This document shows, piece by piece, positions 3,458 to 13,829 of a stretch of DNA of 13,829 nt. The translations under genes and the position numbers were made by a program. Under the pieces are notes generated by a model. That model searched no databases, had not been told where the DNA came from, and saw nothing but the letters and a program-made list of their open reading frames with translations. The first letter of the stretch is position 1, and each line of letters opens with the position of its first letter. This DNA comes from Fibrobacterales bacterium (GTDB taxonomy: Bacteria; Fibrobacterota; Fibrobacteria; Fibrobacterales; Fibrobacteraceae): contig BNUP01000053.1 of NCBI GenBank assembly GCA_025997455.1, positions 1 through 13,829 of the forward strand, in the 5' to 3' direction.

Positions 3458-3545
3458 AAGGGTAAGGTAGTTAATTTAGAGTAGAGTGTAAAGAGAAGAG
3501 AGTAAAGTTGAAAGTGGGGGTATAGGGTGTGGGGTGTGGGGGGAA
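3458..3545 (-). promoter_or_regulatory. Promoter module for the OmpH gene: G-heptamer array, CTCTTTA array, then TTAACTACCTTACCC with TACCTT 6 nt before the ATG
   Basis: The rc reads ...ccccccacaccccacaccctatacccccactttcaactttactctcttctctttacactctactctaaattaactaccttaccctt-ATG. Confidence 0.4.
3516..3544. repeat. GGGTRTG-type heptamer array (upstream of minus-strand OmpH gene)
   Basis: gggggtatagggtgtggggtgtgggggg. Confidence 0.85.
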
Positions 3546-3571: not shown

Positions 3572-3695
3572 ATAAGCATAGCCGCCCAATTAAAAAAAAA
3601 CGAGATAATCTGTATAAACAATGGCGGCAATAAGTATATCTGCCCTATTAAAAAGAAACCTGAGATAATCTGTATATACAATGGCAGAAAACCTG
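3572..3695. repeat. Two tandem ~61-bp AT-rich units inside copy A, each bounded by 6-bp inverted termini (GCCGCC...GGCGGC ; TCTGCC...GGCAGA)
   Basis: Unit 1 is ...gccgcccAATTAAAAAAAAACGAGATAATCTGTATAAACAATGGcggc. Unit 2 is ...tctgcccTATTAAAAAGAAACCTGAGATAATCTGTATATACAATGGcaga, ~80% identical. Copy B (9944-9994) has a single unit. Confidence 0.8.
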
Positions 3696-3749
3696 CCCTT
3701 AGCAGTGCAGAGTAAATTTAACAAGGGAACGCGGTGTGGATAGAACAAC

Positions 3750-3771
3750 AAAAGCCAAGAGTTTGGCTTTT
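3750..3771. terminator. Perfect 9-bp stem hairpin AAAAGCCAA-GAGT-TTGGCTTTT flanked by an A-run and a T-run (bidirectional terminator-like); a second copy lies at 9853-9874
   Basis: The stem and loop are read directly. A-tracts on the 5' side and T-tracts on the 3' side make it look like an intrinsic terminator on either strand. It lies inside the ~400-bp repeat and is followed by three more hairpins (3779-3794, 3817-3835, 3843-3864). Confidence 0.35.
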
Positions 3772-3865
3772 GTAGAGAGAGTGCTTTAGCACTCGTAAGT
3801 TCAGGTTTTTATATACATTGCAAACTCCTTGCAATTCTAAAAGGGCGGGTTAAAAACCACGCCCC

Positions 3866-3939
3866 TACAATTCCTTTCTCCACACCCCACACCCCACACC
3901 CCAACTTGCACCGCCGAGTGATTTTCTACATTCCCTCCT
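3866..3939 (+). promoter_or_regulatory. Promoter module for the lipoprotein/GT-C operon: C-heptamer array, TTGCACCGCCGAGTG (3906-3920), ATTTTCTACATTCCC (TACATT 3927-3932), 7 nt, then ATG 3940
   Basis: Read directly from the sequence. The -35-like TTGCAC and -10-like TACATT are separated by 16 nt. Confidence 0.45.
3881..3905. repeat. CCCCACA heptamer array (upstream of + strand lipoprotein gene)
   Basis: cacaccccacaccccacaccccaac. Confidence 0.9.
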
Positions 3940-4731
3940 ATGAAAAAACTCCTCTCACTTTTTGCAGTATCTGCGCTTGCCCTTGTGGCTTGCAAAAGCA
4001 CCGGCTCGGTATCGGGCACAGTCATTGACCCATTCACGGGAAAAGCGGTTGAACTCCCAACCGTATATGTAAAGGGAACAACATTCTCTTCGCAAAAAAT
4101 ACCGGGCGGTTTGCCGGACGGAACTTTTAAGTTTGAAGGTATTGAGGAAGGAACTTACACGGTGGAGGCGGGCAAAGGTAAATACTCCAAAGGGCATACG
4201 GAATTTACAATTTCAAAAGATGCCGCTAATGCTAAGGCAGATATTTACATTTACAGTCAGAGCACAGACCCCGGACTTTACCGACCTGTAGAAGGTGCGA
4301 ACGCCGAAAAAATCAGTGCGAGAGCAATTTTCCAGCCGATTTGCAAAGAAACGGGAATTGCATTTAGAACAAAATTCACCGTTGAAAATCCGCAAACAAA
4401 AAAGAAAGATGAAAATGTTTTGCCTGCACCGGTAGATGTTCCGCCAGATGTGACTCTGCTCATTAAAATTGCAACTTCCGTGTCCTCACCGATTGAGGCG
4501 ACCTCCTACCCCATACTCACCGAATCTGCAAAAAAACACGCCGATTGCGATGGTGTAGATCCAAAGGAAACTCTGATCGTCCCGAACCTAAGCAAAGGAA
4601 CGGTGATTCCCTCTGCCTACAAGAGTGAAAATTTATACGAAATTAAAGGTTCATTGCAGAGCGGAAAACAAATTCTTGCGATTAAGCAAGATGGTAAATT
4701 GGTAAATGCCTACTATATAAACGCGAAGTGA
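3940..4731 (+). CDS. lipoprotein with an N-terminal carboxypeptidase-regulatory-like (CarbopepD_reg) beta-sandwich domain
   Basis: Lipobox MKKLLSLFAVSALALVAC. SGTVIDPFTGKAVELPTVYVKGT...DGTFKFEGIEEGTYTV fits CarbopepD_reg_2. Its stop overlaps the next gene's start (GTGA at 4728-4731). Confidence 0.8.
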   Translation: MKKLLSLFAVSALALVACKSTGSVSGTVIDPFTGKAVELPTVYVKGTTFSSQKIPGGLPDGTFKFEGIEEGTYTVEAGKGKYSKGHTEFTISKDAANAKADIYIYSQSTDPGLYRPVEGANAEKISARAIFQPICKETGIAFRTKFTVENPQTKKKDENVLPAPVDVPPDVTLLIKIATSVSSPIEATSYPILTESAKKHADCDGVDPKETLIVPNLSKGTVIPSAYKSENLYEIKGSLQSGKQILAIKQDGKLVNAYYINAK

Positions 4732-7196
4732 TTACGAGTCGTTTTCTTTTTCCATTGATTTACACTGCACCTGTGCTCGCAGGTGCGTTGTTGTTATTCC
4801 AAAAAATTCCGCAAAATTCCGCAAAATACTTAGATATTGAATTTGGTTATTATGCAATTCTCTCCGTCTTTTTGTGGTTTTGCATCGCTTTAATTTGGAA
4901 TGCAAAAGAGATTTTTAATAGGGTAAAAGAGACTCTGCCGTCACGGAAGGCTGCTTGCGGACTCGGCGTTTTGCTTGTTGCATTTGCGGCGTTTGCTCTC
5001 ACTCAAATTGACCTTCGGCACAGAGTTTTGAGCGATGAGACGAGTTGGGAATCGATGGCTTTGGAGATGCGTTTTAATAAAAGCGGCGGAGTGTGTAATC
5101 AGGGGGTGTGGAAAGACGGCGTTTTGGAATGCCGAGATGTTGTGAATAATTTTAAGGGTAAGGCGTTTGCACTTGCGCAATCCTTAGCATTTTTATTTTT
5201 AGAACCGAACAGGGACACTTCCCTACTGCTGAATTTACCTCTTGCTCTCGGCTCAATTGCTCTTTTATTTTTTGCATTATTTCGATTTACCCGCGATGAA
5301 TATCTCGCTCTCACGGCGGCGATTTTTTTGGCGAGTATGCCGATTTTTCTGTTTCAGTCCCGTTCCGCATCTACCGAAGTTTTATATGTGTTTTTATTCG
5401 CTTTACTTTTGTGCATATACTCGCTTGTGCCTCCAAAAGAAATTAGTGTTCGGCATTTTGCACTCATAATTCCGTTGCTCGGACTCTTTGCACAGACGAG
5501 GCAGGAGACCGTTTTTTGTTTTATTCCCTTTGCGTTGTATTATCACGCCTATTTTAGAGAAAAAACTTGGCGATTGCCGATTTTTGTTTTTTTGGTTATT
5601 TTTGCGAGTTGGGTTTCTATAAATACAATGATAGCCTACCGCGGTTACGATTTTCAAGGCGGTGAGCATTCTGCACATTCCATTGCAAATTTTATTTACA
5701 ACTTTAAGTCAGATGTTAAAATTATGTGGAATGCGGGACTTGGCAACAACGGTCTTTTGAAAAATCCATTCTACACAACTTATACTTTGCTTTTGTTTGC
5801 AAGTTCAATTTGGTTGCTTTACAGAATAATTTTTCGGCGAAAATATTTGTGGTCGGGATTGTTGTTCGCCTTGTTTTGTTTGCAAATTGCGGTGATACTT
5901 TTTAATGTGTCGGGCACTTTTGAAATTGACATAAATCAGAGGTATGTTTTGGTTGCGTTGCCGTTGTTTGCGATTATTATGGCGGTTGGTTTTTGTGATA
6001 TATTTAAATGTCGCTTATTAGGTTCTGACGACTTATTAACGGGTTCTTCAGAGCCTGCTAAAAATTCAAAATTCGTCTGTATTTTGGCGGCTGTGCTCGC
6101 GGTTTATCTTTCGTTTCATCACAAAGAGAGTTTTAATGCTAACATTTTATATAGCCGAAATATGCTTCTCTCAGAGGAAGATTTTTTGAATACGGAGTTA
6201 AAAAAACTCCCGTCAAATTCAGTTTTTATTTATGCCAGACCTTGGCAAATGCTCGCAAGCGGTTTAACCGGATTTTCAGAACGGCAATTTTTGGGTTGGT
6301 CGCCAAAAGAATTGGATGATATGAGAAATTTTTCCGATGATAACATTTACATTGTGCGCGGGCAAGACGGCTATGGCGAGGTGAATAGAAATTCGCGGGT
6401 GGTCGGTTTTAAAACGACTTCAACAATAGATGCAATTTTGCAGGATTATGCAAATAATAAAATTTTTTCTGTGAATAAGCCCTTCGGTTATCCGCTTGAG
6501 GCATATAAAATCGGAAGGAAAAGAGGAGAATCGAAATATGAAAATTATTACAAACTTTATTTTGATGTGGGCGATTCGGCATTGAAAGTTTCGGTATCAA
6601 CTCCAGAGAATACTTCTAATTCAGAGACGAAAAACATTTTAGCAACGGAAAATTACGAACTTCTTTTGGATAACAAGTTTTATGAAAAAGGAAATGAAAA
6701 ATCGGCAGGTATGCATTACGCAACTTTAACTGCATTTGTCGAAGGCGATACCATAAAAAAGGAAACGCAATTTTTTGTTAGAAGTGAAAATAATCGACTT
6801 TTGCAGGATACAAAACCGAACAGTTGGGAGCAGAGTTGGAGCGAGCCTAAATACGGAAAATCGGTGGAAGGAAATACCATAAAAATTGACGGCAGAATTT
6901 TTGAATATGGGATAGGCTCTCATTCGCCTTCAAAATTAGTATGGGATATAAACGGCAAATACAAAAAATTTCACGGTTTTATTGGCTTAGATGATGAATC
7001 TGCGTGCGGGAACGGAGTTATTTATATTGTAAAAGGAGATGGTAAATCGCTTTACAAATCACGAGTTCTCGCCTCGCACGAATTGGATTCTCTTGAAGTA
7101 AATTTGGACGGAATTAAAACACTTGAACTTGAAACACTCGACAACGGCGATAAAGACTGCGACCACGCAAATTGGGCAGGTGCGTGGCTTGAATAG
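4728..7196 (+). CDS. polytopic membrane protein: ArnT/PMT-like GT-C glycosyltransferase N-terminal domain fused to a C-terminal NPCBM carbohydrate-binding domain
   Basis: 822 aa, GTG start overlapping the upstream stop. There are about 12 hydrophobic helices in the first ~430 aa, with an SDETSWESMALEM loop motif resembling the DExxYxExxxEM signature of GT39/GT83 enzymes. The C-terminal ~140 aa (GIGSHSPSKLVWDINGKYKKFHGFIGLDDESACGNGVIYIVKGDGKSLYKS...CDHANWAGAWL) matches the NPCBM/NEW2 consensus. Confidence 0.8.
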   Translation: MITSRFLFPLIYTAPVLAGALLLFQKIPQNSAKYLDIEFGYYAILSVFLWFCIALIWNAKEIFNRVKETLPSRKAACGLGVLLVAFAAFALTQIDLRHRVLSDETSWESMALEMRFNKSGGVCNQGVWKDGVLECRDVVNNFKGKAFALAQSLAFLFLEPNRDTSLLLNLPLALGSIALLFFALFRFTRDEYLALTAAIFLASMPIFLFQSRSASTEVLYVFLFALLLCIYSLVPPKEISVRHFALIIPLLGLFAQTRQETVFCFIPFALYYHAYFREKTWRLPIFVFLVIFASWVSINTMIAYRGYDFQGGEHSAHSIANFIYNFKSDVKIMWNAGLGNNGLLKNPFYTTYTLLLFASSIWLLYRIIFRRKYLWSGLLFALFCLQIAVILFNVSGTFEIDINQRYVLVALPLFAIIMAVGFCDIFKCRLLGSDDLLTGSSEPAKNSKFVCILAAVLAVYLSFHHKESFNANILYSRNMLLSEEDFLNTELKKLPSNSVFIYARPWQMLASGLTGFSERQFLGWSPKELDDMRNFSDDNIYIVRGQDGYGEVNRNSRVVGFKTTSTIDAILQDYANNKIFSVNKPFGYPLEAYKIGRKRGESKYENYYKLYFDVGDSALKVSVSTPENTSNSETKNILATENYELLLDNKFYEKGNEKSAGMHYATLTAFVEGDTIKKETQFFVRSENNRLLQDTKPNSWEQSWSEPKYGKSVEGNTIKIDGRIFEYGIGSHSPSKLVWDINGKYKKFHGFIGLDDESACGNGVIYIVKGDGKSLYKSRVLASHELDSLEVNLDGIKTLELETLDNGDKDCDHANWAGAWLE
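6018..6056. repeat. ~36-bp imperfect palindromic element (GGTTCTGACGAC-TTATTAACGG-GTTCTTCAGAGCC) lying in-frame inside the GT-C/NPCBM gene (encodes LGSDDLLTGSSEP)
   Basis: About 85% identical (28/33) to the intergenic element at 7401-7439. It sits at the junction between the TM domain and the extracytoplasmic region. Confidence 0.6.
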
Positions 7197-7204
7197 GGGG
7201 AAAT

Positions 7205-7399
7205 ATGAAATACGGAAAATTATCTGATGAAAAATTGACTGTTAAAAAGAAAAAGGTAAAGAGTGCAAAAATTGAAAAGAACGCAGTGGGAGCGGAAATT
7301 GAAAATAACGCGGAAACCTCGAATGTTGCGGAAGGAAAAAACTCCCTGCTAAAAATTCGGGAAAAAATTTTAAACGCAATTGCAGTGATTAAAAAGTAG
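7205..7399 (+). CDS. hypothetical Lys-rich small protein (64 aa)
   Basis: The ORF lies 8 nt after the upstream stop and is preceded by GGGGGAAAT. It is low complexity (KKKKVKSAKIEK) with no recognisable domain, and could be a spurious or small disordered protein. Confidence 0.35.
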   Translation: MKYGKLSDEKLTVKKKKVKSAKIEKNAVGAEIENNAETSNVAEGKNSLLKIREKILNAIAVIKK

Positions 7400-7400
7400 A

Positions 7401-7439
7401 GTAGGCTCTGATGACCTCTTAACGAGTTCTTCAGAGATT
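7401..7439. repeat. Intergenic copy of the same ~36-bp palindromic element (GGCTCTGATGAC-CTCTTAACGA-GTTCTTCAGAG) between convergent genes. It could act as a bidirectional terminator hairpin.
   Basis: Arms CTCTGATGAC / GTTCTTCAGAG form a ~10-bp imperfect stem. It lies between the stop of the 7205-7399 ORF and the stop of the MbfA-like gene. Confidence 0.6.
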
Positions 7440-7442
7440 ACT

Positions 7443-8318
7443 TTACAACTCTATTCCCAGAAAGTGCTTGACCAACTGTGCAATGGCAAACGACACAACG
7501 GAAACCAAAGCACACAAGCCGAACATTTCAAAAAAACGAGTTTTGAATTTCAAATCCTTAGCAACCGAAATATAATAGTTGAACGCCGCTATTATAAACA
7601 CAACAACGGCGAACATAGTAAGCAATGCGTGCAAATACATTTCCTTGGGAAACAGGAGATAAGGTGCAGTCATTAACGCAACGGTTACAAGATACATCGC
7701 TCCTGTGTAAAAACTCGATTTAACTGCTTGCGGATCGCCGTCTGCTTTTGCACTCAGGTAAGCGGAGGCAGTCATTGAAAGAGTCGCAGAAATTCCCGTT
7801 ATGAGACCCGCGAGTGCAACCATTCGAGTATTCTGCAATGCAAATGAAAAACCTGCGAGCGCACCAGTCAGTTCCACAAGTGCATCGTTCATACCGAGCA
7901 CCATAGACCCGACGAATTTCAATCGTTCTTCGTCTAACATATTTATTAAAACTTTTTCGTGCCGTTCTTCATCTGCACGAACTTGTGCGACTTCGGGAAA
8001 TTGGTCTATGAATTTGGAATAATTGACAACCGCAGAAGTTTCACCTTTTTCGAGAAATTTTATCATAAAAGTAAAACCGAAAAGTTTAGCAAAAAATAAA
8101 CTCATATTGACATGAAACCAATTCGCTTTAAGTTTTTTTCCCGTATATTTAGCCCATATTTTTTCGTGGTGGCTTTCGTCTATTGCCAAGTTTTCCAAAA
8201 TCTCACCGTTTTTTTCGCCGATTTTTTTCGCTATGCGTGAATATATCGTCGCACTGTCTGCCTCGCATTGTTGCATAAAGCAGAAGAATTTTGATGTTTT
8301 CGCCGAGAGAGTTGCCAT
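7443..8318 (-). CDS. erythrin-VIT1 family membrane ferritin / iron exporter (MbfA-like: N-terminal ferritin-like diiron domain + C-terminal VIT1/CCC1 transporter domain)
   Basis: Two E-x-x-H diiron motifs (DESHHEKIW, DEERHEKVL) form a rubrerythrin/erythrin-like N-terminal domain. They are followed by the VIT1 signature (GMNDALVELTGALAGFS) and 4-5 TM helices. TACCTT box 7 nt upstream of the ATG. Confidence 0.85.
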   Translation of the reverse strand: MATLSAKTSKFFCFMQQCEADSATIYSRIAKKIGEKNGEILENLAIDESHHEKIWAKYTGKKLKANWFHVNMSLFFAKLFGFTFMIKFLEKGETSAVVNYSKFIDQFPEVAQVRADEERHEKVLINMLDEERLKFVGSMVLGMNDALVELTGALAGFSFALQNTRMVALAGLITGISATLSMTASAYLSAKADGDPQAVKSSFYTGAMYLVTVALMTAPYLLFPKEMYLHALLTMFAVVVFIIAAFNYYISVAKDLKFKTRFFEMFGLCALVSVVSFAIAQLVKHFLGIEL

Positions 8319-8410
8319 TGTGGGGAAGGTAGAAAGTTTGCACGCGGCGGTGCAGATTAGGGTGTAGGGTATGGGGTGTAGGGTGTGGGGAACTCGGCGT
8401 TGCAGAGGAA
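8319..8410 (-). promoter_or_regulatory. Promoter module for the MbfA-like gene: CTGCAACGCCGAGTT, C-heptamer array, TAATCTGCACCGCCGCGTGCAAAC, then TTTCTACCTTCCCC with TACCTT 7 nt before the ATG
   Basis: The rc of this interval is about 95% identical over ~90 nt to 10081-10170 upstream of the epimerase gene. Confidence 0.45.
8359..8390. repeat. GGGTRTG-type heptamer array (upstream of minus-strand MbfA-like gene)
   Basis: tagggtgtagggtatggggtgtagggtgtgggg. Confidence 0.9.
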
Positions 8411-9685: not shown

Positions 9686-9760
9686 TATGGGAATGTAGAA
9701 AATTAACTCGGCAGTGCAAGTTGGGGTGTGGGGTGTGGGGTGTGGGGTGTGGAGAAAGGA
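9686..9760 (-). promoter_or_regulatory. Promoter module for the SPFH gene: C-heptamer array (on the gene's coding strand), TTGCACTGCCGAGTT, AATTTTCTACATTCCC, 6 nt, then ATG
   Basis: The rc reads ctccacaccccacaccccacaccccaacttgcactgccgagttaattttctacattcccata-ATG. It is homologous to 3881-3939. Confidence 0.45.
9723..9752. repeat. GGGGTGT heptamer array (upstream of minus-strand SPFH gene)
   Basis: ggggtgtggggtgtggggtgtggggtgtgg. Confidence 0.9.
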
Positions 9761-9767
9761 ATTGTAG

Positions 9768-9794
9768 GGGCGTGGTTTTTAACCCGCCCTTTTA
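9768..9794 (+). terminator. Hairpin GGGGCGTGG-TTTTTAA-CCCGCCC followed by TTTT (terminator-like on the + strand); the copy-A equivalent at 3843-3864 points along the minus strand
   Basis: GC-rich stem of 8-9 bp with one bulge, immediately followed by a T4 run. In both copies it would stop transcripts leaving the inverted-repeat-bounded segment before they enter the neighbouring genes (epimerase or OmpH). Confidence 0.35.
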
Positions 9795-10030
9795 GAATTG
9801 CAAGGAGTTTGCAATGTATATAAAAACCTGAACTTACGAGTGCTAAAGCACTCTCTCTACAAAAGCCAAACTCTTGACTTTTGTTGTTCTATCCACACCG
9901 CGTTCCCTTGTTAAATTTACTCTGCACTGCTAAGGGCATGTTTTCTGCCATTGTATATACAGATTATCTCAGGTTTCTTTTTAATAGGGCAGATATACTT
10001 ATTAAAACCTGCCCCTACAATTTCCCATTT

Positions 10031-10060
10031 CCCCCCCACACCCCACACCCTACACCCCAC
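10031..10060. repeat. CCCYACA heptamer array, the inner of two arrays upstream of the epimerase gene
   Basis: cccccccacaccccacaccctacaccccac. Confidence 0.85.
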
Positions 10061-10080
10061 TTTTCACTTTTCACTTTCAA

Positions 10081-10170
10081 CTTCTGCAACGCCAAGTTCC
10101 CCACACCCTACACCCCATACCCTACACCCTAATCTGCACCGCCGCGTGCAAACTTTCTACCTTCCCTCCA
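10081..10170 (+). promoter_or_regulatory. Promoter module for the epimerase/LtaS-like operon: CTGCAACGCCAAGTT, C-heptamer array, TAATCTGCACCGCCGCGTGCAAAC, TTTCTACCTTCCC (TACCTT 10158-10163), 7 nt, then ATG 10171
   Basis: Read directly from the sequence. It duplicates the MbfA-like gene's 5' module. Confidence 0.45.
10099..10130. repeat. CCCYACA heptamer array, proximal and upstream of the epimerase gene
   Basis: ccccacaccctacaccccataccctacaccct. This and its flanks are near-identical to rc(8319-8410) upstream of the MbfA-like gene. Confidence 0.9.
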
Positions 10171-11244
10171 ATGAACATTTTAGTCACCGGTGCGGCAGGG
10201 TTTATAGGGAATGCGGTTTCTTTATCGCTTCTTGCACGAGGACATTCCGTGCTCGGACTCGATAACTTAAACGATTATTATTCTGTGGAACTCAAAAAAG
10301 CAAGGCTTGGCAGATGCAAAGAATTTGCAGAACAAGGTTTATTTTCATTTAAGCAATTAGACATAACAAACACGGAAGACATCAATAAATTTTTCGGCGA
10401 AAATAAATTTGACAGCGAAAATAAAGTAATCTCAGAAGAACTCCTCAAAACTTTACCTCATAAAACAACAAGTTCTTCAGTTCCAACTAAATTTGACGGA
10501 ATAATTCATTTGGCGGCGCAGGCTGGAGTCCGCTACAGTTTGGAAAATCCATACACATATATAGATACAAACATAAAAGGCACTCTAAATTTACTTGAAG
10601 CGTGCCGCAGAAATTCCATAGATAATTTTGTCTATGCGAGCAGCAGTTCCGTTTATGGAGACAATGCAAAAATTCCGTTCAGCACCGAAGACATCGCAGA
10701 TTTTCCCGTCAGTTTATACGCCGCAACCAAACGGAGCACCGAACTAATCGCCCACACATATTCGCACTTATTCGGTATTAAAGCGGTGGGACTCAGGTTT
10801 TTTACGGTTTATGGCGAATGGGGAAGACCAGATATGGCTCCTATGCTTTTTGCGAAAAACATTTTGGCAGATCGCCCAATAAAAATTTTCAACAACGGGA
10901 ATATGCGCAGGGATTTCACATATATAGATGATATTGTGAATGGGACAATTGGAATTTTTGAATGGAATGCCGCACGCAAAATTATTGAAAATGATAAAAA
11001 TGCCGCGAGAACTTTTAACATAGGTCGCGGTGAGCCTGTGGATCTTTTGAATTTTGTGGAAGTTTTGGAAAACGAATTGGGAAAAAAAGCCGAAAAAGAA
11101 TTTTTACCTATGCAGGCGGGCGATGTTCCAGTAACTTGGGCAGACACTTCCGCACTCGAAAAAGTAATCGGTTACAAACCATCGGTTTCCTTAGCACAAG
11201 GCGTTAAAAATTTTGCAAAATGGTATAAATCATATTATGCTTAA
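10171..11244 (+). CDS. NAD-dependent sugar-nucleotide epimerase of the SDR family, UDP-glucuronate 4-epimerase-like, carrying a 28-aa in-frame insertion
   Basis: MNILVTGAAGFIGNAVSLSLLARGHSVLGLDNLNDYYSVELKKARL...IHLAAQAGVRYS...YASSSSVYG...YAATK... matches the GalE/UDP-GlcA-4-epimerase (Cap1J/WbpP-like) pattern with the YxxxK catalytic motif. Confidence 0.9.
   Translation: MNILVTGAAGFIGNAVSLSLLARGHSVLGLDNLNDYYSVELKKARLGRCKEFAEQGLFSFKQLDITNTEDINKFFGENKFDSENKVISEELLKTLPHKTTSSSVPTKFDGIIHLAAQAGVRYSLENPYTYIDTNIKGTLNLLEACRRNSIDNFVYASSSSVYGDNAKIPFSTEDIADFPVSLYAATKRSTELIAHTYSHLFGIKAVGLRFFTVYGEWGRPDMAPMLFAKNILADRPIKIFNNGNMRRDFTYIDDIVNGTIGIFEWNAARKIIENDKNAARTFNIGRGEPVDLLNFVEVLENELGKKAEKEFLPMQAGDVPVTWADTSALEKVIGYKPSVSLAQGVKNFAKWYKSYYA
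10414..10497. mobile_element. 84-bp in-frame insertion in the epimerase gene flanked by a 9-10-bp direct repeat (T)AAATTTGAC (10404-10413 and 10488-10497), with an internal inverted repeat CAGAAGAACT...AGTTCTTCAG
   Basis: The DRs are read directly. The insert encodes SENKVISEELLKTLPHKTTSSSVPTKFD between a duplicated KFD immediately before the conserved IHLAAQAGVRYS. UDP-GlcA epimerases normally have a single KFD-like tripeptide directly before xVIHLAAQ. Confidence 0.55.
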
Positions 11245-13159
11245 AAATCGCATCGCTTTATGGAGAACCGCACTCCGCCCGCTAATTTCAATATCGCTCG
11301 CCTTTTGGTTGTGCCATATTCTTTTGCGGATGGTTTTGATTTTTAGGAGCGACCCTTACGGACTTCCGTTTGTGAGCAAGCCCGATTGGTTTATTTTTCA
11401 CGCCGTTTGCATAGACTTTTTATGGATAATAAATTTTTTTGCGGCGTTTGCAATAATTTCTCTTTTCCTCTCGCCCCGCATTTCACAATACTTTACCAAA
11501 TTTTATGTAATTATTCAATCTGCACTTTTGTTAATCACGCTTTTAGATAACGAAGTTCAGCGATTTTTGGGAACGCATCTTTCGTTTGGGCTTGCAAACA
11601 CATATAAAGATACATCGTCTTTACGAATGTTTTGGGAGTATTGCGCATCTGATGTTTCTGTTCCATTTTTGCAATTTTTTCTGTTGGTTTTTCTGTTGCC
11701 GCTCGCATATTTATTTTACATTTTGGTTAAAAATTTCAAAGTTAAATCGGCACTAATATCCATAGTTATATTTTACGCAATTTCATTTTTATTTATAAAT
11801 GTAATTTGGACAGGCAATGCGCGAATGGCAAAACTTGCTCCGGTTGTTTCTTTAATCTATAACGAAATTTTTTCAAAGGATAAAAACGAACGGTTGAACG
11901 AAACCGAATTGCTCGCTTACGGAAAATCATATCAAATTTTATGGCTCAAAACGGAGGGAGATTCTCTGTGGGAATTTCCGCAAAAAGAAAAACCGCTTTA
12001 CCGAGTGCCAAGCGAAGAACTGCAAAATTCACAACAACTAAAAAATCGTCGTGCACAAAAACCGAATTTCATAATGATACTTTTGGAATCGCACAGAGCC
12101 TTAAATGTAGATTTTCTAAACTCGACTAAAAATAACTCAACTCCGTTTTTAGATTCTTTGGCGGGTAATTCTCACATCTGGGAACGATTTCACGCAAGCG
12201 GAATCCCCACAACAGGCGGCGTTCTTTCCACTCACATTGGCATTCCGCACCACAGTAAAATTGCCATGGCAACCGAACTCGCACATTTGCCCATACCGAG
12301 TTTTGTATCTGCCTTACGGGATTCAGGTTATGCCACACACTATTTTTCCGCCGCAGACCCCGCTTGGGACAACTTAAATGTTTGGATGGCAAAATGGTAT
12401 AACGATCAACATTACGCACGCACACGCGAAGATGATTCGACTTTTTTCAAACACGCCGCAGAATATATAAACGACACTCTTGCAAGCAATAATATTGGGT
12501 CGCCCTTTTTTATCACACTTATGACTCGCAGCAACCACTACCCTTTTAACCTCGCCCCCGGAATGCCCGAAAGCGAAAAAGCAAAACCAATAACAGAGCG
12601 AATAAACTACACAATGCGTTGGACAGATAAGCAACTTTCAAAGTTTTTTCATTCGATAGAAAATGAGGAATGGTTTGCAAACACATATATAATTATACTT
12701 GCAGACCACGGATTTCCGCTCGGTGAAAACGGAGTTTCCACGATGAACGGCGGTGCATTTTCAAATGTCACTTGGATTCCCTTTTTGATTTACGGAAACG
12801 GTATTGAGGCAAAAAAAGATACCTCAGCGGCAAGTCAAATAGACATTGCTCCGACAATACTTGAACTCGCGGGAATTTCTGTGCCGAATTGTTTTATGGG
12901 GCATAACTTGTTGCGCGGCAACGGCGAAGGTTTATCTTTGGGTGCGTATTTCGGTTTTAGTGCAATAGGATTAGAGGGTTTCAGGCTGATTTCAAAATTT
13001 CCTTACGGCTTACAAAACGAGGAGAGTTATCTGTTTGCAGACGGTGACACTCGGCAGCGTGAGAACTTGGCAAGTGAAAACTTAACAACCGTTCGGCAAC
13101 TCAACGGACTTTTAGATACCTTAATTCGGCTAAGCGACAACGGTTTGGAAAATCCTTAA
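11237..13159 (+). CDS. LtaS/phosphoglycerol- or phosphoethanolamine-transferase-like membrane sulfatase-family protein
   Basis: About 5 N-terminal TM helices, then an alkaline-phosphatase/sulfatase domain (IMILLESHRALNVDF...PFLDSLAGNS...ADHGFPLGENG). The start is chosen at the in-frame ATG 11237, which overlaps the epimerase stop by 8 nt. The track start at 11213 would overlap it by 32 nt. Confidence 0.8.
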   Translation: MLKNRIALWRTALRPLISISLAFWLCHILLRMVLIFRSDPYGLPFVSKPDWFIFHAVCIDFLWIINFFAAFAIISLFLSPRISQYFTKFYVIIQSALLLITLLDNEVQRFLGTHLSFGLANTYKDTSSLRMFWEYCASDVSVPFLQFFLLVFLLPLAYLFYILVKNFKVKSALISIVIFYAISFLFINVIWTGNARMAKLAPVVSLIYNEIFSKDKNERLNETELLAYGKSYQILWLKTEGDSLWEFPQKEKPLYRVPSEELQNSQQLKNRRAQKPNFIMILLESHRALNVDFLNSTKNNSTPFLDSLAGNSHIWERFHASGIPTTGGVLSTHIGIPHHSKIAMATELAHLPIPSFVSALRDSGYATHYFSAADPAWDNLNVWMAKWYNDQHYARTREDDSTFFKHAAEYINDTLASNNIGSPFFITLMTRSNHYPFNLAPGMPESEKAKPITERINYTMRWTDKQLSKFFHSIENEEWFANTYIIILADHGFPLGENGVSTMNGGAFSNVTWIPFLIYGNGIEAKKDTSAASQIDIAPTILELAGISVPNCFMGHNLLRGNGEGLSLGAYFGFSAIGLEGFRLISKFPYGLQNEESYLFADGDTRQRENLASENLTTVRQLNGLLDTLIRLSDNGLENP

Positions 13160-13829
13160 CTGCACACTTTGTTCCTTCCGCGTTCCTTCGCCTCATATAA
13201 TTTTGCATCTGCCATTTTATATAAAACCTCGTTTGATGTCTCGGCAGAGGGAACAATACTCGCCACACCCGCACTAACCGTAATTTGCACTCTTTCGCCG
13301 CTTGCGTTAAAAACTTCGGCAATTTCTATTTTTTTCCTAACTTCTTCCGCTACAACCAGAGCGCCTTCGAGTGCAGTTCCTGGTAACAGCAAACCGAACT
13401 CCTCACCGCCCAAGCGCGATGCAGTATCACTTACCCTATGCACCGAATTCAACAAAACATTTCCGATGGTTTTCAAAACCTCATCACCGACCTGATGACC
13501 GTGTAAATCGTTTATATTCTTAAATTTATCTGCATCAAAAATAATAAACGAAAGGGAATTTTTCTCCCTCATCATCCGCGAAAATTCTCGGGTCATACTA
13601 TCGCCGAATGCTCGCCTGTTGTAGAGGTTCGTGAGGGAATCCGTGAAAGACAACTTCTCGACAATCGCCCTCTGCAATGCCTCATTTCTTATAGTCTTAA
13701 TCAAAATAATGCTAATCACCAAACTTGCAAACACAATAACAAGCGTGGGCGAAACAAAATTTTTGGTAATTATTAAATTTGACATATTCTCAATACTGCT
13801 TTTAGGTATTAACAACACCAATTTCCAAT
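13156..13829 (-). CDS. GGDEF-domain diguanylate cyclase; 5' end uncertain (frame open to window edge; internal ATG candidate at 13785)
   Basis: SLTNLYNRRAFGD...IIFDADKFKNINDLHGHQVGDEVL...RLGGEEFGLLL...YEAKERGRNKV is a canonical GGDEF (GGEEF) domain preceded by one TM helix. The track start is TTG, and the frame has no stop through 13829. Its stop codon shares TTAA with the convergent upstream gene's stop. Confidence 0.8.
   Translation of the reverse strand, partial: WKLVLLIPKSSIENMSNLIITKNFVSPTLVIVFASLVISIILIKTIRNEALQRAIVEKLSFTDSLTNLYNRRAFGDSMTREFSRMMREKNSLSFIIFDADKFKNINDLHGHQVGDEVLKTIGNVLLNSVHRVSDTASRLGGEEFGLLLPGTALEGALVVAEEVRKKIEIAEVFNASGERVQITVSAGVASIVPSAETSNEVLYKMADAKLYEAKERGRNKVCS

Follow-up and report, generated by a model that had tools for sequence, protein, structure and literature searches.

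Three related copies of a short palindromic element on a Fibrobacterales contig, two of them translated within protein loops

The 13,829-nucleotide contig BNUP01000053.1 of a Fibrobacterales bacterium (assembly GCA_025997455.1), analysed here at its full length and called the window, contains three copies of a palindromic element that is ~46 bp long in copies 1 and 2 and 75 bp long in copy 3. Two of the three copies are in-frame insertions within intact, translated open reading frames (ORFs), one encoding a GT-C/NPCBM membrane protein and the other an NAD-dependent epimerase, and the third lies just behind a gene. Our analysis favours, with moderate confidence, a reading in which all three derive from one miniature, non-autonomous palindromic element, akin to MITEs (miniature transposable elements that carry inverted repeats) and Rickettsia palindromic elements (RPEs), that inserted at AT-rich sites. 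This reading is the best available because a 9-bp target duplication, inverted arms, a small size and three related copies are found together.

Likeness and folding of the three copies

Copies 1 and 2 both lie on the plus strand and share a 35-bp core, which occupies 6019-6053 in copy 1 and 7402-7436 in copy 2, within hairpins that span 6015-6061 and about 7396-7446, respectively. The two cores are identical at 30 of 35 positions without a gap; when the window was shuffled 300 times with its dinucleotides preserved, no match to the 35-mer exceeded 24 of 35. A previous inspection of the letters (the sequence-only reading) had put the likeness between 6018-6056 and 7401-7439 at 28 of 33 positions, and the repeat it described stands, with the figure slightly undercounted. 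The degenerate motif proposed in that reading occurs exactly twice in the window and in none of 200 shuffles, and the likeness of the two copies continues for ~15 nucleotides (nt) leftward, with one 3-nt gap, to 6001 and 7387. The shared sequence is a real repeat and not a coincidence. The description of both copies as imperfect hairpins also agrees with folding, in which each plus strand forms an interrupted hairpin, at -16.6 kcal/mol for copy 1 (z -3.1) and -23.6 kcal/mol for copy 2 (z -5.4), and the minus strand of copy 2 folds at -18.8 kcal/mol (z -4.4).

Copy 3 (10414-10488, minus strand) is a variant with a longer loop that is inverted with respect to copies 1 and 2. When copy 2 was compared with the window by short-word BLAST, 10422-10443 of the minus strand matched the right end of copy 2 at 21 of 22 positions (shuffle maximum, 17 of 22), and the 20-mer TAAAGTAATCTCWGAAGAAC is exact in both copies. 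When copy 2 is aligned globally with the reverse-complemented 10414-10488, both arms come into register around a loop that is 21 nt longer in copy 3, with a score of 42 against a maximum of 29.6 in 500 shuffles, none of which reached the observed value. The 21/22 match and the both-arm alignment bear out the earlier suggestion that the separate epimerase insertion belongs to the same family. The likeness of copy 1 to copy 3 is weak, and copy 2 is the link between them, since it resembles both while they barely resemble each other.

The inverted arms of the element read CTCTGAWGA(A)C and GTTCTTCWGAG and are subterminal, and the latter motif occurs three times in the window, in every case at one of the three copies. 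The element is as small as a MITE, far below 500 bp, and cannot encode a transposase. None of the three copies matched a family in Rfam. Look-alikes of the K-turn, hammerhead and attC elements (CUGAUGA, TTAAC/GTTC) were rejected, as the second strand lacks the required G-A pairs and the inverse-core and core sites are misplaced.

Insertions in two protein loops and an intergenic gap

Copy 1 lies within the GT-C/NPCBM gene (4728-7196, plus strand), which encodes an 822-residue polytopic membrane protein with a C-terminal NPCBM/NEW2 domain. The reading frame of this ORF confirms that the copy is translated, in frame as LGSDDLLTGSSEP and within the ORF as ...KCRLLGSDDLLTGSSEPAKN..., and the insertion as a whole, KCRLLGSDDLLTGSSEP(A), covers ~17-18 codons at 6006-6059 of the plus strand, with boundaries uncertain by a few bases. 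The orthologue comparison that the sequence-only reading had proposed for a 13-residue linker favours insertion of an element: among 56 aligned orthologues, comprising 46 Fibromonadaceae proteins (64-70% identity) and 10 more distant proteins of the Fibrobacter type, none carries the segment KCRLLGSDDLLTGSSEP, and in most of them the loop consists of five residues of the form D-[AVI]-S-xGx-SK. These alignments support the interpretation of the translated copy 1 as a lineage-specific insertion. By a hydropathy scan, the inserted residues (427-443) fall after the penultimate transmembrane helix (407-425) and before the last (447-465), one helix before the soluble region and not, as had been described, exactly at the boundary between the GT-C domain and the soluble region. 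This loop is short and hypervariable and is an insertion hot spot, in which P0002, P0004/P0043 and P0006/P0007 each have different extra segments. These segments were ruled out as copies of the same element, their sequences being unrelated and not repeated within their own contigs. In one relative (L003, from JGI 3300042594), the orthologous loop has an insertion of ~21 codons (11264-11311) with a strong hairpin (-18.8 kcal/mol, z -4.6), which suggests that palindromic insertions have entered this transmembrane loop more than once in the clade.

Copy 3 lies in the gene for the NAD-dependent (UDP-glucuronate 4-epimerase-like) epimerase (10171-11244, plus strand; assigned by Pfam), the product of which has 357 residues compared with about 310-340 in homologues. 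The copy is translated as SENKVISEELLKTLPHKTTSSSVPT, and 28 residues, SENKVISEELLKTLPHKTTSSSVPTKFD, are added to the epimerase immediately ahead of the conserved strand (V/I)(V/I)HLAAQAGVRYS. This 28-residue insertion is present in none of 59 aligned homologues, and the Pfam match to the epimerase domain is split in two. The copy is flanked by the 9-mer AAATTTGAC, read as the codons KFD, on the plus strand at 10405-10413 (left) and 10489-10497 (right). The two 9-mers are 84 nt apart, and the insert together with one of them makes up 84 nt, or 28 codons. The KFD motif occurs once in the homologues and twice in the epimerase of the window, and since the homologue alignment has it once, the 9-bp repeat is a duplicated target sequence. 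AlphaFold2, run with the homologue alignment, returned a confident Rossmann fold (pTM 0.83) in which residues 81-106, between the helix at 68-77 and the strand at 110-114, have a pLDDT below 50; in this model, the copy 3 insertion would form a disordered surface loop. Both coding copies lie in loops that are shown to tolerate changes in length. As a separate observation, the sequence AAATTTTTCGGCGAAAATAAATTTGACA around the epimerase target site (10387-10414) is 75% similar to 13757-13784 in the GGDEF gene, which also has AAATTTGAC; this likeness is probably due to A/T-rich chance.

Copy 2 fills a 43-nt gap between the TAG of a small ORF (7205-7399, plus strand) and the TAA of a convergent rubrerythrin/VIT1-family gene (7443-8318, minus strand; Pfam), the stop codon of which abuts the copy. 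The placement between two convergent stops that had been reported for this copy is therefore correct, with an unconserved ORF on one side and a full-length gene on the other. The ORF is lysine-rich, has 64 codons and ends 2 nt before copy 2; it matches no Pfam family and is not present at that position in relatives. Over its whole length, the VIT1-family protein can be aligned with equally long homologues, which rules out that copy 2 truncated its gene. On the minus strand, the hairpin of copy 2 starts at the VIT1-family stop codon and is followed by UUUUU, and on the plus strand no U-run follows it. A consensus terminator scan called the site on neither strand, because the stem is interrupted and A/U-rich. 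The bidirectional terminator envisaged in the sequence-only reading is not upheld by these results, and it is plausible from the sequence that copy 2 acts as a terminator of the minus-strand VIT1-family gene only.

The surroundings of copy 2 differ from those in relatives. In three of them (L002-L004), the GT-C/NPCBM gene overlaps a convergent FliH-family gene; in the window, the interval behind it (7197-7442) holds the small ORF and copy 2, after which comes the VIT1-family gene and not FliH. In the source genome, FliH is on another contig (L022), where it lies downstream of a GT2-TPR gene and converges with purD. The join across copy 2 was not confirmed by an independent Logan assembly of the same read set (DRR253688), which reproduced copy 1; its contig ends at window position 7411, inside copy 2, and its other end lies at the edge of a 275-nt repeat. 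Assemblers break at repeats. The break inside copy 2 is an indirect hint that this copy is repetitive, and low coverage or heterogeneity could act alike.

The reading frames of the element bear on how it could persist inside genes. On either strand of copies 1 and 2, exactly one frame is free of stops, the only open frame of copy 3 is the one read by the epimerase gene, and the coding copies 1 and 3 both use the open frame. The peptide is GSDDLLT(G/S)SSE(P/I) in the plus orientation and (G/I)SEE(P/L)V(N/K)(K/R)SSEP in the minus orientation. Because the element is palindromic, its two open frames encode similar peptides, and the type common to both orientations, G/I-S-[DE]-[DE]-L-L/V-x-x-S-S-E/V-P, is short and hydrophilic. 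Copy 1 is read in the plus-orientation frame and the inverted copy 3 in the minus-orientation frame (KVISEELLKT...SSSVPT), so that viable in-frame insertions exist in both orientations, and this is the pattern that survivorship would give.

Of the five differences between copies 1 and 2, four are synonymous in the frame of copy 1 (GGT/GGC, GAC/GAT, TTA/CTC), and the same differences keep or improve base pairing. They are too few to permit a conclusion; they could suggest constraint, as would be expected if nothing had moved and each site had been shaped by selection for an RNA hairpin, a protein-binding palindrome or a linker peptide. In the same vein, the host genome is a fragmented draft, in which the copies might be an amplification or assembly artefact. 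Such explanations without mobility are largely refuted already, and we regard them as very improbable. A DNA identity of 86-95% at three unrelated sites and in both orientations is unlike convergent selection, copy 2 is non-coding, and the lack of an Rfam match also argues against a selected RNA or site. As for an artefact, copy 1 was recovered in the independent read assembly, and chimeras would not be in frame, target-flanked and in permissive loops twice.

Origin of the copies and comparison with known elements

An exact 9-bp target duplication is the classical footprint of staggered-cut (DDE-type) transposition. In the MITE-like reading, a transposase encoded elsewhere in the genome and acting in trans would make the copies, and its staggered cut would give the 9-bp duplication at the target. 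Most insertions into genes would be lethal or disruptive, and those that survive would have a length that is a multiple of three, an open frame and a position in a permissive surface or inter-helix loop. Copy 2 would be neutral, or may have been co-opted as the intrinsic terminator of the VIT1-family gene.

Several features of the three copies weigh against this reading. The termini of the element are not sharply defined, the hairpin of copy 3 is weak, with a minimum free energy not better than that of shuffles, and no target duplication is detectable at copy 1 or copy 2. The native 11-mer GCGAAAATAAA (10397-10407) occurs again at the left junction of copy 3 (10415-10425, plus strand), a repetition that neither clean cut-and-paste nor a simple target-duplication model predicts. 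The recurrence of an exact 14-mer, CCTGCTAAAAATTC, near copies 1 and 2 does not fit cleanly either: it lies directly after the core of copy 1 (6054-6067) and again 44 nt upstream of the core of copy 2 (7345-7358), and a circular permutation of 7345-7436 reproduces the junction of copy 1. The 14-mer may be left over from an element end or be coincidental. An unrelated place in the window matches the A-rich stretch near 7345 exactly over another 14 nt, and because a chance match of equal length exists in the same region, the 14-mer was not used as evidence. Finally, only three copies are known, and all of them lie inside 4.4 kb.

Much of this would be expected if the copies had arisen locally, with the native terminator hairpin of the VIT1-family gene (copy 2) copied in pieces into two nearby genes, either by template switching during replication or by repair synthesis primed at A/T-rich microhomologies, with neither a genome-wide family nor a transposase. 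The confinement of all copies to 4.4 kb of one contig, the role of copy 2 as a hub between two copies that are barely alike, and the absence of target duplications at copies 1 and 2 are all consistent with such copying. The reiterated native 11-mer and 9-mer at the left junction of copy 3 are typical of multi-step template switching, and the 14-mer upstream of copy 2, with the permuted junction of copy 1, points in the same direction, although the second 14-nt match in the A-rich region means that it may be chance. No copies turned up elsewhere; this absence is uninformative, however, because the source genome was not searchable. Against local copying stands the exact 9-bp duplication at copy 3, as microhomology joins normally leave the target unduplicated. 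In addition, the 21 nt by which the loop of copy 3 is longer are not found in copy 2, so the present copy 2 was not its template, and copy 1 has diverged from copy 2 by 14%. We therefore consider local templated copying to be rather unlikely.

The target duplication also bears on a third route, in which a repetitive extragenic palindrome (REP) or REPIN is spread as a single-stranded hairpin by a REP-associated tyrosine transposase (RAYT), an IS200/IS605-like Y1 enzyme. REP, BIME and REPIN repeats resemble our element in being imperfect palindromes of ~35 bp, a size close to the 35-46 bp found here, and in the position of copy 2 beside stop codons between convergent genes; this copy is extragenic and preceded by GTAG, and copies 1 and 2 lack target duplications, as Y1 transposition predicts. 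However, Y1 transposases make no target duplication, and one of 9 bp is present at copy 3. REPs are extragenic by definition, number in the hundreds, often as inverted doublets, and are associated with RAYTs, whereas two of the three copies here are intragenic, no paired, REPIN-like doublets are present and no RAYT gene was seen by Pfam among the 10 largest ORFs of the window. The flanking sequences, moreover, give the three copies no common 5' tetranucleotide. The target duplication and the intragenic copies make this route less likely, and overall we judge it improbable.

Searches beyond the window covered collections of genome and metagenome contigs (genome_contigs and metagenome_contigs) that do not include the source genome, as the window's own copies were not matched there, and nulls in them are mute on its copy number. 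The core pattern GACNNNTTAACGNGTTCTTCAGAG had no match in either collection. Matches to the conserved-end pattern GTTCTTCWGAGATTACTTTA numbered 12 among the metagenome contigs and 5 among the genome contigs. The 12 from metagenomes were rejected as copies of the element, since the opposite arm is absent and the contexts are unrelated; the five genome matches, known by taxon and number and not by inspected sequence, fall in unrelated taxa and are as many as expected by chance. The viral_contigs collection had no match to a two-arm pattern, and nothing meaningful came from plasmids and phages by BLAST. Three further results count against a mobile element. An nhmmer profile of copies 1 and 2 found nothing above noise in 50 kb from three related Fibromonadaceae contigs. 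A second contig of the same genome (L022; 3.3 kb, entirely coding), which was reached from the same read set through the FliH orthologue (P0474, AGMMS49938_11980), has no copy. No parent insertion sequence (IS), transposase or matching terminal repeat was found in the collections scanned, which lack the source genome.

A bolder version of the MITE-like reading is that the element forms a high-copy family, with hundreds of copies in a symbiont-like, highly repetitive genome, pre-adapted to life inside genes. Since both open frames encode a near-identical short acidic/serine-rich linker (GSDDLLTGSSEP versus ISEELVKRSSEP), insertion into a protein loop could be harmless in either orientation. We hold such a family to be possible, with a low probability.

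Among known systems, RPEs are the closest in behaviour. They are inserted in frame into metabolic genes, to which they add a conserved peptide (PMC10969869), and like the element described here, they are palindromic hairpin repeats found both in intergenic DNA and in frame in unrelated genes, with the host protein kept (PMC10969869). Unlike RPEs, which are about 100-150 bp long and form defined Rickettsia families, our element has 46-75 bp, is from Fibrobacterales and has no likeness outside the window. It also shows a target duplication at one copy, and its three known copies contrast with the tens to hundreds of RPEs. The resemblance is functional only, and the element is not a member of an RPE sequence family.

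In structure, the element is closest to small MITEs such as QMITE2 of Coxiella burnetii, which has 7-9-bp direct repeats at its full-length copies, often lies at ORF 3' ends and also occurs as truncated, REP-like copies (PMC5896051, PMC10969869). In-frame MITE and RPE insertions, 7-9-bp direct repeats and a preference for ORF 3' ends have been described in other bacteria (PMC10969869, PMC5896051). Like QMITE2 and other MITEs (ERIC, Correia, Chunjie and RUP), the element is a small non-coding repeat with inverted arms and, at copies 1 and 2, stable hairpins, and ERIC and QMITE1 copies can be intragenic, as here. However, these MITEs have 100-400 bp and recognisable terminal inverted repeats, whereas the element is shorter and its arms are subterminal. 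QMITE insertions hit the 3' ends of genes and the coding copies here lie in internal loops; in addition, unlike MITEs of the QMITE2 and ERIC type, only one copy here has direct repeats and no parent IS is known. On its minus strand, copy 2 also looks like a dispersed terminator-like repeat consisting of a hairpin and a T-run (PMC10969869), from which the element differs in that only one of three copies is placed as a terminator, two lie in ORFs and there is no sequence relationship. The element is thus outside the RPE and QMITE2 sequence families and shorter than all MITE and RPE families compared, and it is of a kind already familiar from other bacteria. Nothing relevant on elements of this sort in Fibrobacteres or Fibromonas emerged from a full-text literature search.

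What the element means depends on how far it is dispersed. If the high-copy family is real, no smaller palindromic element of the 'proteome-colonising' sort would be known, and the RPE type would have an independent second case in a different phylum. Outside Rickettsia and Coxiella, a dispersed family would be a second, clean instance of selfish palindromic DNA that survives in genes through loop peptides, would help to account for the poor assembly of the genome, and would serve as a marker for recent genome dynamics in the Fibrobacterota of termite guts. Annotators should in that case expect lineage-specific loop insertions of 15-30 residues in conserved enzymes. If the event is only local, it would be a small curiosity about how hairpins get copied.

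Host genome, gene content and other repeats

The 822-residue product of 4728-7196 is identical to the hypothetical protein AGMMS49938_11120 [Fibrobacterales bacterium], and its nearest relatives, with 64-70% protein identity, are annotated as Candidatus Fibromonas or Fibromonadaceae, a lineage of termite guts. Our Pfam scan, which took in the 10 largest ORFs, also assigned genes in the window for a LytS-type histidine kinase, OmpH, a CarboxypepD_reg-like protein, and Band 7, sulfatase-family and GGDEF proteins.

Several other repeats occur in the window. A 275-nt inverted repeat with 99% identity (3629-3903 and 9729-10003) has each arm just upstream of a gene start (3940, plus strand; 9685, minus strand) and several small hairpins inside; it has no match in Rfam and resembles either a promoter/5'-leader module that was duplicated or a small RNA gene. 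A second inverted repeat, of 91 nt and 97% identity (8316-8406 and 10083-10173), takes in the start codons of the VIT1-family gene (minus strand) and the epimerase gene (plus strand) together with the sequence upstream of each, so that two unrelated genes have one common 5' cassette. Between two small ORFs, at 1424-1465, lies a perfect 19-bp stem with a 4-nt loop (GGTAACCTCTACCAACCTC / GAGGTTGGTAGAGGTTACC), which is unrelated to the palindromic element. Finally, beside nearly every intergenic region stand arrays of G-rich heptamers (GGGGTGT / GGGTGTA or the complement), at 701-747, 907-944, 3509-3541, 3854-3905, 8351-8400, 9715-9756, 10024-10061 and 10089-10140. These arrays are a second class of repeat on the contig, more abundant than the palindromic element, and may have the potential to form G-quadruplexes.

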